Both the position numbers and the translations under genes were made by a program. Below the pieces are notes generated by a model. That model searched no databases. It was not told the DNA's origin and saw nothing but the letters and a program-made list of their open reading frames with translations. Below, piece after piece: positions 2,474 to 19,076 of a DNA stretch of 44,226 bases. The DNA is from a virus: the UHGV virus genome UHGV-0346409. The stretch is one strand, 5' to 3'. How positions within the stretch are numbered: position 1 is the stretch's first letter; each line of letters begins with the position of its first letter.

Positions 2474-4692
2474 GCTGTTTGCTCCTGTGCGGCGGCGAGA
2501 GCGGCGAGGCGTTCGGTTTTGATTTCATTCAAACGGCGCAGGCGCGAACCAAGATAAGTTGAATACTCCTTATCACCTTTGGATTCTGCGGCTTTGCGGT
2601 GAACTTCTACTTCCCGCGCAATAAGGCCATAGACTTTATTAACTTCATTGGGGGTTACGGCTGCAGCCAGTGTTTTGGCAACACCTGAGAGTCGTTCATC
2701 CAGTTCTTCACGCAGTCGGGTAGCATCCTCTGCTTTCTCGCTTGCCTTCTTAATACCGTATTCTGTATTCAGCTCGGCGGTGTAGGCACTATCGTTATGC
2801 ATATCCATATAAACATCTGCCGCAAATCCCAGATGAGATAGTGCTTTGACGGTGGCATCAGTAAGAGACTTTTTGGAGGCCTCTTTTTCCATTACCAGTG
2901 CCCCTTTGTTATTTTTTGATATGTAATCCGTGTGGCCATATGACGGAATAAATCCTTTCACTCCGTTCCAGACGTACCAGAGATCTATCCGGATGGTGTG
3001 TACTGACAGGCAGAACAGGGAGCCGTCAGCATCCCTGACAGGTTTTTGTCCAATAATTTTCCCTGTCTGATCCTGTATAGGTTCAAGTAATGGCACACCG
3101 CGATCCACTCGCTCCTCCTTGATTTCAACTCCCCAACCAATGCCTTCCATTCCCAGCACTTCAGTCGCACGCATCAAAATATATTGTGCGCGTATGGAGT
3201 GCAGTCCTGCACCGTAATCATTATGTGTGACATACGCAGGATCGGTCCGCTGAACGCGATTCCAGATAGCCAAATTTGCTTTGCTCTGGTCATCATTCAT
3301 TGCTGACAGATAATGCTCCATGCGAATTGATGCAGTTTTTTCCTCGGTATGGATCCGCTCAACCAGAGCGTCAACGTTCTGCACCAGGTCTTTTACCTGC
3401 TCGCTAAGTTTTTCTTGTGGAGGAGTCTCTTCTTCCAGGATAACAGTTACAGATTCCCGCTGTGATACGGCGTTATTTTCTGGTACGCCATACACATGGC
3501 GGGGCGTGACAAACTGCTCACGCAACTGCTGCAAACTACGCTCTCCAGCATTTGCTGCTTCGCTTTTTTCGCCCTGATTTGAGGGGGGTTCTGACATCAT
3601 CCCATCGATTGAGAATCGCCCGCCGCCGTGGTTGGTGACTTTTACATCACCCTTTGGTGCTGCGTCCTTTGGCTTCTCTTCAACAGCATTTGCATCACGC
3701 TGCCCGTTAGCTTGCAGCCAGTTGTCGATGTGACTGCGCAGGGATTGCGGGAAATGGTACGTGTCTTTTGCGGGGGCACTCTGAACGACACCGAATACGG
3801 ATGCCCGGTCATAGGAAAGGATCTGATCCGTTGTGCGCAAGGCCATTGACCAGCGTTTAAAATCCTCCCGATCCTGGCTGATTATTTCGTCTGCCGCTTT
3901 CAGGACGCTGGGGGTGATTTTTTCCGGGCCAACGGGTAACAGAGCGCAGGCAATTTCACGATCCAGTGTAGCGTGAGTCTGTTTGTAAGGACGTGCGGAT
4001 GCTGTTTCTGGTTTTACCTCCGGCAGCATTTCATCGCGTTTACCGGGATTCTCTACCCATTTTTTTATAAATTTGGAGATAGTCCAACTGGTCGGGTTTT
4101 GTTCCTGGGTATCGCAACTTGCCAAAATTGCATGTACCAGATTATTCAATCCAGCAATATGCATGTACTCGATGGGCTTACACGCCACCATGGCATCAAG
4201 AACGATGCGGTTAAACGCGTCAACCTCATCCTCACTGTCAGTATCACTGTTGTCGAGCATCTCCAGGTATTCACGCGTCTGCGCAAGCAATTCACTGTTG
4301 ACTTCGTTGGCGTCGTGGCTGAACAGCAGAACGGCGGCGAATCGTTCACGAGCCGGCAGTTTCATCAGGTCGTTAACCTGTGCGATATCTGCTGAACCGC
4401 TATCTACAACGGGGGTGTTAACTACCCATTTTTCGCCATCAAAACTGTGTTCTGTGGCGAACGTCTCATCAAACTCACCAACGCCTGGGCGCGGTTGGCC
4501 CGGGGCATCTTCCCAGATTTTAGGTTTGAAATAGTTGTCGCCGTGGTCAGGGTAGGCTTCCCACAATTTGCCGATGATGATGTTCTCGGCAACTTTTTTG
4601 TTAGGGGCGTCGATGGCGATGGCCAGCGCCGGGATCGCGCCGTTTTTGAGCGCGCCTTTTTTCGCTTCTAACAAGCCGTTAAAAATGGTCAT
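2470..4692 (-). CDS. Large recombination protein with ERF-like single-strand-annealing domain in its C-terminal half and an N-terminal ~430 aa of unknown function
   Basis: 740-aa ORF; region around aa 450-640 (NDYGAG..IRAQYIL.., ..KKSLTDATVKALSHLGFAADVYMD) resembles the ERF family by recall; preceded by ATGAGGAAAGACCA motif. Confidence 0.5.
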   Translation of the reverse strand: MTIFNGLLEAKKGALKNGAIPALAIAIDAPNKKVAENIIIGKLWEAYPDHGDNYFKPKIWEDAPGQPRPGVGEFDETFATEHSFDGEKWVVNTPVVDSGSADIAQVNDLMKLPARERFAAVLLFSHDANEVNSELLAQTREYLEMLDNSDTDSEDEVDAFNRIVLDAMVACKPIEYMHIAGLNNLVHAILASCDTQEQNPTSWTISKFIKKWVENPGKRDEMLPEVKPETASARPYKQTHATLDREIACALLPVGPEKITPSVLKAADEIISQDREDFKRWSMALRTTDQILSYDRASVFGVVQSAPAKDTYHFPQSLRSHIDNWLQANGQRDANAVEEKPKDAAPKGDVKVTNHGGGRFSIDGMMSEPPSNQGEKSEAANAGERSLQQLREQFVTPRHVYGVPENNAVSQRESVTVILEEETPPQEKLSEQVKDLVQNVDALVERIHTEEKTASIRMEHYLSAMNDDQSKANLAIWNRVQRTDPAYVTHNDYGAGLHSIRAQYILMRATEVLGMEGIGWGVEIKEERVDRGVPLLEPIQDQTGKIIGQKPVRDADGSLFCLSVHTIRIDLWYVWNGVKGFIPSYGHTDYISKNNKGALVMEKEASKKSLTDATVKALSHLGFAADVYMDMHNDSAYTAELNTEYGIKKASEKAEDATRLREELDERLSGVAKTLAAAVTPNEVNKVYGLIAREVEVHRKAAESKGDKEYSTYLGSRLRRLNEIKTERLAALAAAQEQTA

Positions 4693-5043: not shown

Positions 5044-6039
5044 AGCGACTCCTTGGTGATGTATACTCGGGACCGATCAGCGAATATTGATCAGCTTCCA
5101 TAGCGTCAGTGTCGTTGGTCTTTCCTCATCACAAGTTTGGTCACTTGTGATAAATCCGAATGGTTTGGTCGCCGTTCGGGGTAACTGGCCCGCCTTGTGC
5201 GGGTCTTTTGCTATCTAAAGGGTGCCGGTTACGTTTCCGGCGTCGTTATGTTTCCATCACGACCGTACGGGGCTGGTCTTTCCTGTTTTGAGCTGGTCAG
5301 GCTCATGGTCAACGCTGGTCAGGCGTGGTACTTCCTCCGGTCTTTCCCTGGTGTCACGCTGCGGGTTTGGCCTCTCCTGTTGGGGACTCAGGCACAGCGA
5401 TAAAACCTGGCTGTGTGAAAAAATGGCCCATCGTGCGGACTGGGCAAAGACTAAACACAGCAAATTGATGATGGGCGCCCGGAATCGAACCGGGTAACGG
5501 GCAGGGAGTTCCCGTTAAACACCTGTTCACCACAACCGGGAGCGCACTCCGCCATTTCAAAATTTAACGACAAAGCTCAAAGTTGAGTCGATGAAGTGCG
5601 CTCTCGTGTTGTAGCCAGGACTCTTCCCTGGTGGTCACACCGTATCGCCTTGATGGTGAATCAATCGCTCATACCTGGCTGTGGCTTGCACATTCCGGCT
5701 ACCTGCTATGGAGACAACGCGTTAAGGCTCCGCTTCCATCCAGACCGCTTCGACACATGTGCCATATGCCGGCGAAGTCTTTCCCTCTGTCATCGTGTTG
5801 GCGCCGACGCGCAAAATTTGATGCCGTCTTTCCGGCTGTCAGAACGTGTTTCTGAACAACTGCCGCTGGGTAAGCGTTGTTGATGAAAGTGACTTTACAA
5901 TTTGTATTTGTAATGGTCAACGTATTTTTAAAAAATAATTTGTAGTTAGGGGCAAAAAAATATTCACTGTGTAAAGGTGTTTTTGTGTTAGGGGGAAAGT
6001 TGCATGCCAGCAGCGGCTGGCCTGAAAATTTGAACTGAA

Positions 6040-6453
6040 CTATTTTGTCTGGTTTTTGGCTTCAAGTAGTTCTTTTAGCAGTAGATCGAAGTGCTCTCTT
6101 TTTTCTTTTAGCTCATTGATTAATTTATTTTTTTCGCTCTCAGGCAGTCCTCTGAATAGTTGCAGTAGAGCCTGTTCTTGCGGGGTTAGTTCTTGATTGT
6201 AATTACCCGGGTGTAGCGTGGATTCATCCAAATATTCCCCTTCATTCATGAAGAAAAAATGAACAGGGTATCCGGTCACTTTTGCTAGCTTGTCTAATTT
6301 ATCTTTTCTTGGAGTTACCCCATTACACCATGCCTGAACTGATTGAGCCGTAACCCCAATATGGCGAGCTAACTCAGATTGAGACCAGCCTAAGTCTTTT
6401 AGAATCCGTTGTAGTCGGCTAGCAAAAGCCATGTTTTTCGTTTTTGTGTTCAT
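6040..6453 (-). CDS. Phage repressor, XRE-family HTH, no S24 peptidase domain (CI-like position)
   Basis: N-terminal HTH (LGWSQSELARHIGVTAQSVQAWCNG); helical C-terminus; divergent from cro-like gene. Start ambiguous (ATG 6453 or 6432; ORF-track TTG 6468). Confidence 0.7.
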   Translation of the reverse strand: MNTKTKNMAFASRLQRILKDLGWSQSELARHIGVTAQSVQAWCNGVTPRKDKLDKLAKVTGYPVHFFFMNEGEYLDESTLHPGNYNQELTPQEQALLQLFRGLPESEKNKLINELKEKREHFDLLLKELLEAKNQTK

Positions 6454-6551
6454 ACCGTAAGGATACAAGGTTTAATTGTAGGGATCATTGCAAATATAAT
6501 TTGTAATTACAGTTATGATTTGTAATGATGGCGCGGACACAAGGAGTCCAT
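6454..6551. promoter_or_regulatory. Divergent immunity-region promoter/operator between repressor and cro-like gene
   Basis: AT-rich intergenic region with repeated TTGTAAT-type half-sites, including the palindrome TGTAATTACA at 6503-6512; position between divergent HTH genes. Confidence 0.45.
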
Positions 6552-16035: not shown

Positions 16036-16641
16036 TTACTTGCGTTTAAAAAGGTATTTTGTCACGACCAGCACGAGGCCGAATACCTCTGTCAAAGTAC
16101 CGCCCATGTACAACTGTAGTGTTAAATCCTCAAATTCCAGCTTACCTGCGCCGTCGGCAATAAATACACCATTCATTATCAGAAGTTGGCAAGCAAGGAT
16201 AATCAGGAACCATTTCCCGTATCGTTTTTTTAGAGCGATTTCTGCTTCAAAATCTTTGTTGTTGAGTTGTTTGCGCTCATGCTCGGTATCAAGTGAATTC
16301 ACCTGTTTCACAGATGTGAACTCGGTCAAGATTTTACTCTCAGTACGGGTGACTTGTTGAGAGGGTGTAACAGTTGGAATTCTTTTGCTAGACGCAGCTA
16401 CAGCCATTTTGCGAGCTTCGGCAGCTCTTTTTCTGGCTATTCCGCGAATACGGACAGCCGTTTTTTTGGGGGCGTGCGAAACCTTTGGCTGAGGTGAAGT
16501 TTCGTCAGGAGACTGAACCGGGGTTTCATCGTCCCCCGGCTCAACCTCTTCTGCTAACTGACGGTGTAGGTTGAGGGAATCCTTCAGTCGGCGTGCAACT
16601 TCCTGTTTGAAACGGCTGTTAAAATCGTCATCCGATGGCAT
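16036..16641 (-). CDS. Membrane protein: charged, low-complexity N-terminal region and two C-terminal transmembrane helices
   Basis: Hydrophobic segments WFLIILACQLLIMNGVFI and LTEVFGLVLVV near the C-terminus; start 9 nt after the ImmA-like stop (operon). Confidence 0.6.
   Translation of the reverse strand: MPSDDDFNSRFKQEVARRLKDSLNLHRQLAEEVEPGDDETPVQSPDETSPQPKVSHAPKKTAVRIRGIARKRAAEARKMAVAASSKRIPTVTPSQQVTRTESKILTEFTSVKQVNSLDTEHERKQLNNKDFEAEIALKKRYGKWFLIILACQLLIMNGVFIADGAGKLEFEDLTLQLYMGGTLTEVFGLVLVVTKYLFKRK
16042..16117. repeat. Right copy of ~75-bp imperfect direct repeat, lying within the 3' end of the membrane-protein gene
   Basis: Aligns with 12441-12515 (about 93% identity). Confidence 0.7.
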
Positions 16642-16650
16642 TCTAAAGCG

Positions 16651-17139
16651 TTACCCCAACCTCAAGTTCTTTAAACGATAAGTCATCGCATCGTCAGATA
16701 CGCCAAAATAATGCGCCATTATATAACTTGGTTGGCCGTCAGCGTGCAGTTTTCTGACCTCATCAACCGGCATCAGAAGTTCTGCTGCGAACTTGTTCGC
16801 AAAAATTTCATCAGGATGCGTTCCGGCGCTTGCGGTTTCGCCACGTAAATCAACGTACTCATATTCATCACTATGCGATGCTTGCCGGGCGATGTAATGC
16901 CCCAACTCATGCCCACATGAAAAACGTTGACGAACTTTGTTGTCATCACTGTTTAGAAAGATCGCTGGATCTTGATCTTTTTGTTTAATCAGTGCGCCAG
17001 AAACTTTCCCAGGAAGATCGGTAATAAAAACATCTAATCCCATGTCGTGAGCAATTTTCGCTGGATCAACAGGGAAACCACGCCCGCACCAGAACGTGTC
17101 CAGCACTCGCCGGGCGTGCTCTCTTGGGTTGGTAGCCAT
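16651..17139 (-). CDS. ImmA/IrrE-family zinc metallopeptidase (COG2856/DUF955-like)
   Basis: HExxH motif (CGHELGHY) and downstream E..ANKFAAELLMP segment typical of ImmA/IrrE peptidases (recall); GGAGG RBS. Confidence 0.75.
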   Translation of the reverse strand: MATNPREHARRVLDTFWCGRGFPVDPAKIAHDMGLDVFITDLPGKVSGALIKQKDQDPAIFLNSDDNKVRQRFSCGHELGHYIARQASHSDEYEYVDLRGETASAGTHPDEIFANKFAAELLMPVDEVRKLHADGQPSYIMAHYFGVSDDAMTYRLKNLRLG

Positions 17140-17466
17140 AGCTCCTCCAGTTACTGCATTACGATTGTTGGTCGAAATATAGACAACATGTTCCGTACCA
17201 CTTTCCTGTGAAAGTGCAAATTCTGCACTTCTGGTACGATATTAACTGTTAGTAGTAAAGTCTTCCAGATAAATCACTTTAAAATCTTGTGAATTGCTTG
17301 CTTTTTACGCTGCATTGTGGATGGCTCAATGTTTCCAGTAAAAACATACATGATAATCATGACATTAGTGGTTTTTTAAGCGTCCATATGTTTCTTAAAA
17401 AAATGGATGCCACAAGAGGCCAGATGAGAACGGAAAGGGAAGGCTATTACATGTGTGATTTATTAC

Positions 17467-17486
17467 ATCTGTAAAAAAATACAGAT
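17467..17486. promoter_or_regulatory. LexA (SOS) box candidate: ATCTGT-AAAAAAAT-ACAGAT
   Basis: Exact CTGT-N8-ACAG with AT-rich spacer, in the intergenic region between the ImmA-like gene and a plus-strand small ORF. Confidence 0.5.
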
Positions 17487-17706
17487 CTAACTTGATCTTT
17501 TCATTGAAGTTTTTCTTGGTCCTGGATAGGATCTGGAGGTTGCGAAGTTTTTAGAGTCGCATCAAAGGGAAAGCCCTGACAGCGCCAACTGTCAGGGCCA
17601 TACAAAAACATCGGTTAATGCTTTCGTTGAGATCTCGGTTTGGGAGATTACCTCAACCGGGATCCCGTGTAAAGCATTCATTACCGAAAATGATATAGGT
17701 CAATGA

Positions 17707-17985
17707 ATGAAACACATCTGTAAAAAGTCACATCGTCACGACAGTATGTTTGATGTTCTTTCTGCAAATCAGGGTAACGTTGGGCGGCACAAGTGTTGTG
17801 GATGTGCCTATGATAAAGGTATGTGGCATGCATTAATCGGCGTTCCGCGTGCGGTTGATGACTCTGTTTTAGGTGATTTACCCGAAAGCCAGGCTGGGCA
17901 TGTCCGTCATAAAGATGCTTTTGAAGCATATAATATGGGCTATGACCATGGGATGCATAAAAAAGCCTACGGTATGGCCTCATAA
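17707..17985 (+). CDS. Small basic His/Cys-rich protein (92 aa)
   Basis: ORF followed 20 nt downstream by a strong terminator; about 220 nt downstream of the LexA box; weak RBS. Confidence 0.4.
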   Translation: MKHICKKSHRHDSMFDVLSANQGNVGRHKCCGCAYDKGMWHALIGVPRAVDDSVLGDLPESQAGHVRHKDAFEAYNMGYDHGMHKKAYGMAS

Positions 17986-18005
17986 TCTGGTGCAAATGAA
18001 TAACT

Positions 18006-18745: not shown

Positions 18746-18838
18746 TGACCATAAACGGTTTAATCCCCTATAAAACCGTTTAATAAAATTCACGACGTGA
18801 ATATAATTGTTCATTATTCCCTCATTGTATTTGGCGTT

Positions 18839-18876
18839 ATGACAAATGCCATAAAATACTGTATAAATGTACAGGT
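18839..18876 (+). promoter_or_regulatory. SOS-type promoter: -35 ATGACA, 17-nt spacer, -10 TATAAA, overlapped by LexA box TACTGT-ATAAATGT-ACAGGT (18857-18876)
   Basis: Read directly; box is close to the TACTGTATATATATACAGTA consensus and overlaps the -10; 21 nt upstream of an ATG with GGGGGAAG RBS. Confidence 0.6.
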
Positions 18877-18896: not shown

Positions 18897-19076
18897 ATGA
18901 ATATTCAAGAATCTATAGGCGAACTACCGGAAACATGCCGGGCTGTTATCAAGCGTAAGGACGGACACATCGTTGGTGTGCGTGTTCTGACCGATGATGA
19001 ACGGATTGCCAGCCTGATGGCGTTTCTCGAGTTGGCAGAAATAGCTGGATATACTATTACACCCCCTGATGCGTAA
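18897..19076 (+). CDS. Small SOS-regulated protein (59 aa), candidate antirepressor; below the ORF-track length cutoff
   Basis: ATG with strong RBS immediately downstream of the LexA-overlapped promoter. Confidence 0.5.
   Translation: MNIQESIGELPETCRAVIKRKDGHIVGVRVLTDDERIASLMAFLELAEIAGYTITPPDA

Follow-up and report, generated by a model that had tools for sequence, protein, structure and literature searches.

Layout of the locus

The DNA analyzed here (the window) is the whole 44,226-nt stretch of the virus genome UHGV-0346409, which is 100% identical to lambdoid prophages in several Escherichia coli chromosomes. Its gene order starts with a DicA-like repressor, a Cro-like gene, and a YdaT-like gene, followed by replication genes. 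Then comes a cargo stretch with ORF6N, LprI, and GIY-YIG genes, an ImmA/IrrE peptidase gene and a gene for a 201–amino acid (aa) membrane protein (both on the minus strand), and open reading frames (ORFs) of 92, 213, and 59 aa, after which DUF1367, DUF1364, Q, the lysis genes, and the head genes follow. Our subject is a palindrome in the 567-bp gap between the ImmA/IrrE peptidase gene (16651-17139, minus strand) and the 92-aa ORF (17707-17985, plus strand). An earlier note on this DNA had described it as an exact CTGT-N8-ACAG with an AT-rich spacer, through which either neighbor could be SOS-regulated. The core is indeed present at 17469-17484, its spacer AAAAAAAT consists of A and T throughout, and both flanking genes are as described. 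The comparisons below suggest that the palindrome is an ordinary and doubtful SOS box, and that the cassette around the 92-aa ORF is unannotated yet of a recognizable kind, namely, a putative cis-antisense–controlled prophage moron that encodes an uncharacterized protein family. The cassette comprises the following features, from left to right:

17467-17486, no strand: the palindrome ATCTGT-AAAAAAAT-ACAGAT (full 20-mer atctgtaaaaaaatacagat), with the core CTGT-N8-ACAG at 17469-17484 and an extended dyad at 17463-17490
17504-17532, plus strand: predicted sigma-70 promoter of the 92-aa gene, with −35 TTGAAG (17504-17509), a 17-nt spacer, and −10 TAGGAT (17527-17532)
17540-17706, plus strand: predicted structured 5′ leader of the 92-aa mRNA, 167 nt, with conserved blocks (fold z = −4.9)
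17566-17638, minus strand: predicted antisense small RNA of ~73 nt that would match leader positions from about +27 to +100 (fold −31.6 kcal/mol, z = −4.8)
17572-17599, minus strand: covarying hairpin, then TTTCCCTTTG, a terminator or 3′ stem-loop of the predicted antisense RNA (terminator scan)
17645-17673, minus strand: predicted antisense promoter, with −35 TTTACA (reverse complement of 17668-17673), a 17-nt spacer, and −10 TAATCT (reverse complement of 17645-17650), start at ~17638
17707-17985, plus strand: the 92-aa ORF (phrog_3941), the cargo of the cassette, with invariant C5, H9, C30, and C33
18006-18023, plus strand: intrinsic terminator that closes the cassette (terminator scan), at a position kept in the ST131-type variant described below

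The palindrome is real and stands somewhat above chance expectation. Two CTGT-N8-ACAG sequences occur in the window, this one and another at 18859-18874, where 0.41 would be expected by chance (5 of 100 shuffles reach two). When the spacer is restricted to A and T (CTGT-W8-ACAG) and up to one mismatch is allowed, the window holds three matches versus 0.13 expected, a number that none of 100 shuffles reached. The symmetry is also larger than first noted: The dyad reads TTAcATCTGTA-AAAAAA-TACAGATcTAA (17463-17490), with 10 of its 11 arm positions complementary, and inverted repeats of this 11/6/11 quality occur ~3.6 times per shuffled window versus 15 matches (~10 distinct) in the actual one. 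The gap has a GC content of 39%, versus 48% across the window, so that palindromes with an A/T spacer are somewhat less surprising here than the whole-window shuffles imply.

Two side observations concern the left arm. The 13-mer ACATCTGTAAAAA occurs twice, at 17465-17477 and at 17714-17726 (codons 3 to 7 of the 92-aa ORF), and exact occurrences of ATCTGTAAAAA in the window are confined to these two places; since the repeat is missing from the Enterobacter copy of the cassette, it is probably a coincidence. Furthermore, a 32-nt CRISPR spacer in a type I-E array beside iap in the E. coli isolate AF39 (NZ_OZ547136.1) is identical to 17443-17474, a protospacer that overlaps the left arm and is preceded by a canonical AAG protospacer-adjacent motif at 17440-17442.

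The palindrome travels with the 92-aa cassette

We compared the gap with related genomes and found that the palindrome accompanies the 92-aa ORF and not ImmA, as three sets of sequences illustrate. Among the 432 E. coli genomes that match the gap, 410 share only 17140-17401, the part beside ImmA. These prophages, which we refer to as the sequence type 131 (ST131) type, read ...TATGTTTCT-GG-AAAATACAGGTCTAACCTGATC..., i.e., ~17396-17475 including the left half-site is gone while the ImmA operon is intact, so that all 410 genomes carry ImmA with 262 bp of its upstream region and lack the left half-site. In the Salmonella phage BIS08P22, DNA homology begins at 17462 and extends through the 92-aa ORF, in a cassette that sits immediately downstream of cI. 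The closest copy outside Escherichia is that of Enterobacter hormaechei, whose protein is 79% identical; it carries AGCTGTAGAAAAATACAGCT at the equivalent place, in a nin region where ImmA is not nearby. The suggestion that ImmA could be SOS-regulated by this palindrome is hardly plausible after these comparisons: The gene occurs in 410 genomes without the left half of the palindrome, and the palindrome occurs in Enterobacter without the gene. As for the 92-aa ORF, to whose cassette the palindrome belongs, the palindrome does not overlap the conserved promoter of that gene, and the C of its CTG varies, as detailed below.

The cassette occurs as a stand-alone moron, and the slots that it occupies are very different. 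It is found next to cI in P22-like phages, in the Q-lysis interval of a Providencia phage, in lambdoid nin regions, and, in a P2-like phage, between the replication/partition genes and the portal gene. The phrog_3941 cassette is a widespread, uncharacterized cargo of known phage accessory-gene hotspots across Enterobacterales. In the 410 ST131-type genomes, the 92-aa cassette is replaced by a 77-aa ORF on the minus strand (phrog_5550; 3230-3640 of the reference locus L003, from ST131 strain 4993, versus 17396-18005 of the window). The right half of the palindrome and what follows it as far as the −35 are kept there, along with the same right-hand terminator, and this remnant reads as the scar of a cassette exchange.

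A conserved promoter pair and a predicted antisense RNA

To describe the cassette beyond E. coli, we aligned unique upstream regions, 29 at first and 39 later, taken from genomes, phages, and contigs of viral or metagenomic origin; broad DNA-pattern scans of viral and metagenome sets proved too unspecific, and only tblastn-confirmed loci were used. A promoter-like TTGnnn-16/18-TAnnAT was present in 28 of the 29 unique homologues, at 174 to 181 nt from the ATG in 26 of them and at 217 and 241 nt in two outliers. Outside the window, its elements vary among TTGATC, TTGAGG, and TTGACA for the −35 and TATAAT, TATTAT, and TAGGAT for the −10; the −10 is TATAAT in copies from Providencia, Proteus, and Yersinia. 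A terminator that stops ~30 nt before the −35 in the Providencia/Proteus group means that the promoter can be no further left. We infer a predicted transcription start of the 92-aa gene at ~17540. With the conserved −35 at 17504, the palindrome ends 17 bp upstream of it and spans about −73 to −54, with its center at about −63. It thus lies wholly 5′ of the −35, and no promoter-like site overlaps it on either strand, all promoters being predicted.

As a side observation, five GATC (Dam) sites lie in this region (17484, 17494, 17530, 17631, and 17661), a count reached by only 0.5% of 250-nt windows. The −10 and the right arm of the palindrome are each overlapped by one of these sites, and every cassette homologue has the GATC at 17494.

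A second, convergent promoter is still more constant. TTTACA-17-TAnnnT occurs at one fixed position in all 29 unique homologous loci, and TGTAAAG does not vary in the alignments. The hairpin at 17572-17599, ~40 nt downstream of this promoter, displays compensatory changes in 10 of its 12 pairs in a 14-sequence alignment. Read as the minus strand, these pairs comprise 142 Watson-Crick combinations, 17 G-U, and 9 mismatches; read as the plus strand, they comprise 142 Watson-Crick combinations, no G-U, and 26 mismatches. This asymmetry suggests that the hairpin would be functional on the minus strand only. Together, the convergent promoter and the minus-strand hairpin predict an antisense RNA of ~73 nt, so that in silico the cassette holds an antisense RNA gene with its own promoter and terminator that overlaps the mRNA. 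No Rfam family was found at E ≤ 1 over 5 kb; a match of the hairpin to P22 sar stayed below the threshold (19.6 bits versus the family threshold of 43). The predicted RNA resembles P22 sar/ant and lambda OOP/cII in its size of ~70 nt, its terminal hairpin, and its place in a phage regulatory or cargo region, and sar additionally in that weak Rfam resemblance. It differs from them in that its score is far under 43 bits, its target gene is unrelated, and it would be aimed at a 5′ leader.

The 92-aa protein is modeled with confidence (predicted local distance difference test score, 91.9) as soluble and helical, and it is probably zinc-binding. Family and structure searches found no family or fold neighbor for it. 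A type I toxin is usually shorter than 60 aa and hydrophobic or otherwise toxic, and this 92-aa soluble helical protein does not fit that description. The 567 bp that pass for intergenic thus contain a conserved promoter pair and an unannotated predicted antisense RNA.

LexA-likeness of the palindrome

We scored LexA-likeness by the heterology index (HI), using an approximate matrix built from 30 E. coli LexA boxes (Lewis et al. 1994; Fernandez de Henestrosa et al. 2000), whose leave-one-out values follow the published indices. The HI of the palindrome is 10.9 to 11.2 on this approximate matrix, compared to 1.7 to 12 for the 30 known boxes, which places it at the weak end, at the level of polB, dinG, and recN box 3. 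Within the window it ranks fourth, and two chance sites in coding regions outscore it. In matrix scoring, which the earlier note had named as a check, the HI of ~11 is marginal; the formal SOS-box pattern is there. We found no numerical HI cutoff in the published work that we looked at. For Salmonella boxes, an HI of ~10 combined with a large distance from the gene went along with LexA independence and an HI of ~6 with LexA dependence (PMC8072944).

Compared to E. coli LexA operators (consensus TACTGTATATATATACAGTA), the palindrome shares the exact CTGT-N8-ACAG with an all-A/T spacer and a left flank, ATCTGT, like that of the uvrD box. Its homopolymeric A/T spacer is like that of the uvrB box, where such a run is tolerated in a functional operator. 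It departs from them in its flanks, which are AT/AT instead of TA/TA, and in the A at position 8, the two features that account for its HI penalties. Functional LexA boxes normally overlap the promoter or the start site, unlike this palindrome, which lies 5′ of the −35. As a LexA site, the palindrome is marginal. A true SOS switch is improbable, since the palindrome lies ~63 bp 5′ of the start of a gene whose main control is apparently an antisense RNA.

Conservation of the element across related cassettes

Among a set of related cassettes that we call group A, the element takes the following forms:

E. coli: ATCTGTAAAAAAATACAGAT, HI about 11
E. whittamii: ATCTGTGAAAAAATACAGAT, HI 11.6 to 15.0
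Enterobacter: AGCTGTAGAAAAATACAGCT, HI about 7
Lineage L016: AGGTGTAAAAAAATACAGCT, HI about 11
Salmonella P22-like phages: AGGTGTAAAAAAACTCAGCT, HI 14.1 to 16.4
Rahnella: AGATGTGAAAAAACACAGCA, HI 14.0 to 14.9
Lineages L062 and L066: core ATGTGAAAAAATACAG, no HI
Lineage L042: AGCTGTGAAAAAACACATAC, HI 17.2 to 20.7

In ten group-A lineages, T4 G5 T6, C16 A17, and the A-run are unchanged. Nine of the ten have G18, and only four have its symmetric partner C3 (the base being C, G, or A). The innermost pair covaries, as TGTA..TACA in some copies and TGTG..CACA in others, i.e., A..T changes to G..C. The form CTGT..ACAG is confined to E. coli, E. whittamii, and Enterobacter; elsewhere we found GTGT, ATGT, ..TCAG, or ..ACAT, or no element. 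The element is absent from two group-A lineages (L041 and L059) and from the whole Providencia/Proteus group, where the promoter, leader, and antisense motifs are intact. Since the C of CTG is C, G, or A in orthologues, and two cassette groups do without the element, LexA binding is not its conserved role. To judge from these alignments, selection for a symmetric LexA dimer site does not explain the family-wide pattern, which fits a TGTR-A6-YACA dyad or A-tract with another role or none. Within the Escherichia/Enterobacter clade, the persistence of CTGT and ACAG is compatible with LexA use.

The P2-like group (L011, L022, L030-L032, and L036) carries, in place of the element and farther upstream, ATCTGTT-A-AACAGAT ~40 nt upstream of the −35. 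This sequence has the arms of the palindrome with a spacer of 3 nt, not 8 nt, and it stands amid ATCGAT/GATAGAT repeats.

Possible roles of the palindrome

We favor, tentatively, a reading in which the moron promoter has the palindrome as an upstream dyad/A-tract element, either architectural or a site for some unnamed factor, while the main control of the gene lies with the predicted antisense RNA. The palindrome would be the upstream-most part of a self-contained cassette that consists of the dyad, a sigma-70 promoter, the 167-nt leader, the 92-aa ORF, and a terminator. Located ~63 bp before the start, the dyad may act as intrinsically bent DNA, or it may be bound by a host nucleoid-type or other dimeric factor, and in either case it would modulate a weak core promoter. 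The exact CTGT-N8-ACAG would then be the form that the general TGTR-A6-YACA dyad takes in Escherichia and Enterobacter. LexA may bind it weakly, but from this placement it could not occlude RNA polymerase, and it would be the main control of neither neighboring gene. The 92-aa gene would instead be regulated mainly after transcription, with the ~73-nt antisense RNA from the convergent promoter pairing with the leader. Several observations weigh against this reading. The palindrome is the sole perfect CTGT-W8-ACAG of the window (at 17469), a sequence that chance rarely produces; CTGT and ACAG persist in the three closest lineages, where flanks and spacer differ; and Enterobacter has a version that, with an HI of ~7, scores as a good LexA box. 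As the promoter positions are predicted, a real start elsewhere could put the palindrome over a promoter. As to a factor for the architectural role, G-N13-C around an A-rich core, a Fis-like motif, matches most lineages, though not the E. coli copy, and is speculation only. Last, LexA regulates the E. coli toxin genes tisB, dinQ, and symE, in each of which a small RNA acts on a long leader. The LexA box of tisB lies 236 bp from the ATG (PMC8072944 Table 1).

Much of this evidence also serves a rather unlikely alternative, in which the Escherichia/Enterobacter cassette lineage has gained a LexA operator that is weak but genuine. From its site at about −73 to −54, LexA would dampen the weak 92-aa promoter, e.g., by blocking contacts of the C-terminal domain of the RNA polymerase α subunit or other upstream contacts, and SOS derepression would have to exceed a threshold set by the antisense RNA, as compared with tisB/istR-1, dinQ/agrB, and symE/symR. 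The perfect CTGT-W8-ACAG, an HI within the range of the weak boxes named above, the Enterobacter orthologue, the A/T-run spacer that the uvrB box tolerates, and the combination of a long leader with a predicted antisense RNA are all in its favor. It has to contend with a box that lies entirely 5′ of the −35, with the variation of C3 in sister lineages and whole cassette groups that do without the element, and with the Salmonella data, where a higher HI and a greater distance accompany LexA independence (PMC8072944). That the window and Enterobacter share the eight core bases does not reach significance, given a local identity of ~75% (we estimate ~0.1). That the palindrome has no function, being a chance AT-rich palindrome left where the ImmA module meets the cassette in a mosaic or recombination junction, we consider unlikely. 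It does lie at a homology break, with ~17396-17475 lacking in the ST131 type and Salmonella phage homology starting at ~17462; short direct repeats TCTKTAAAAAAAT flank the indel; a single additional CTGT-N8-ACAG has p ~ 0.3 once the strong box at 18857 is set aside; and other cassette groups lack the palindrome. Yet a related dyad with symmetric changes recurs in Escherichia, Enterobacter, Salmonella, Rahnella, and several metagenomic lineages, and an 11/6/11 symmetry is uncommon (~3.6 per 44 kb by chance, ~0.05 in this gap).

It is very improbable that the palindrome is an operator of the divergent ImmA/IrrE operon, bound by LexA or by an ImmR/CapH-like repressor. The palindrome does sit in the shared intergenic region, and ImmA/CapP-type peptidases usually adjoin a repressor-controlled promoter (bioRxiv 10.1101/2022.04.27.489752). 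However, it is 328 bp from the ImmA start codon and ~90 bp beyond the sole promoter-like site of that strand (17379-17350), the 410 genomes that lack the left half-site still have ImmA with the 262 bp upstream of it, no helix-turn-helix (HTH) gene is adjacent, and the operator pattern of the prophage repressor does not match. Quite unlikely, in turn, is an extended version of LexA control in which the 92-aa cassette forms a mobile dual-gated module, with a toxin- or defense-like protein of an unseen zinc-binding fold gated by the antisense RNA and, in Escherichia and Enterobacter, by LexA. Such a module would move among the cargo hotspots of phages as a protein-toxin analogue of SOS-controlled type I toxin-antitoxin loci (the cI-adjacent slot of P22-likes, the lambdoid nin region, the Q-lysis interval, and the P2 replication-portal hotspot). 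With tisB/istR-1, dinQ/agrB, and symE/symR, the cassette shares a small gene, a long structured leader, a LexA-type box upstream, and an RNA that is predicted to pair with the leader far 5′ of the ribosome-binding site. It is unlike them in that its product is a 92-aa soluble, probably zinc-binding protein and not a short hydrophobic peptide, its predicted RNA is a true cis-antisense transcript from a convergent promoter, and its box does not lie over the promoter. Should the cassette prove to be a toxin or defense gene, the coordinates above would allow a direct test of how it is regulated.

We also tried and rejected several other identities for the palindrome. Perfect copies of the prophage repressor operator pattern, TTRCA-N9-TGYAA, are limited to 5895, 6488, and 6507, and there is no copy near 17467. 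For a terminator or stable hairpin, the stem is A/T-rich, no T run follows on either strand, and the terminator scan did not list the site. Overlapping promoters discerned by eye (minus-strand TTAGAT-17-TGTAAT and plus-strand ATTACA-18-TCTAAC) lack essential −10/−35 bases, are unconserved, and are not in the scan. The consensus sequences of the UP element, CRP, FNR, TyrR, IHF, sigma-28, and RcsB, compared by eye, do not fit.

A strong SOS box 1.4 kb to the right

On its own, the palindrome carries little weight, and reading it as SOS control would misannotate the ImmA operon. The analysis separates this doubtful palindrome from a probable SOS operator in the same cargo stretch:

18857-18876, plus strand: the other SOS box, TACTGTATAAATGTACAGGT, HI ~5 (recA/lexA class), 1.4 kb right of the palindrome

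This box overlaps the −10 of a candidate promoter, ATGACA (18839-18844)-17-TATAAA (18862-18867), and is followed after 20 nt by the 59-aa ORF (phrog_340; 18897-19076). A terminator-like inverted repeat precedes it at 18752-18782. The box is conserved in all related prophages and is nearer to the consensus in the ST131-type and E. whittamii ones. It is probably the real SOS operator of the region.

The prophage repressor itself is a DicA-like protein of 130 aa (gene 6040-6432, minus strand) with no S24 cleavage domain. Three perfect TTRCA-N9-TGYAA dyads (5895-5913, 6488-6506, and 6507-6525) flank the DicA-like repressor and Cro-like genes and are probably the prophage operators. By analogy with the Gifsy antirepressor loci (Lemire et al. 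2011, PMC3121763), the 18857 box would likely drive a Gifsy-type antirepressor in a prophage whose repressor cannot cleave itself. As in those loci, the DicA-type repressor is short and has no cleavage domain, a strong LexA box stands downstream of the replication genes and outside the immunity region, a terminator-like palindrome precedes the box, and a small ORF follows it. The window differs from them in having no dinI homologue and in that the 59-aa ORF shows no detected similarity: tblastn against the phage collection revealed no Gifsy similarity of this ORF, and a DUF1367 search returned no Gifsy records among the matches listed.

The ImmA/IrrE protein matches PADLOC capP (E = 2.4e-25, profile positions 3-151 of 242) and Pfam Peptidase_M78 (E = 7.7e-18). 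With CapH/CapP and the related ImmR/ImmA and DdrO/IrrE pairs it thus shares the M78 metallopeptidase, but we found no HTH ORF adjacent to the peptidase gene, and the CapP match covers the peptidase domain only, without the C-terminal GAF domain. CapP-family proteins are activated by single-stranded DNA and cleave HTH repressors (bioRxiv 10.1101/2022.04.27.489752), and the substrate of the CapP-like peptidase could be the DicA-like repressor of the prophage. The earlier proposal that this island is wired to the DNA-damage response is reasonable by way of the 18857 box and the CapP-like peptidase, but not by way of the palindrome. The peptidase gene (16651-17139, minus strand) is co-oriented with the gene for the 201-aa protein (16036-16641, minus strand; phrog_5346), which has two C-terminal hydrophobic helices.

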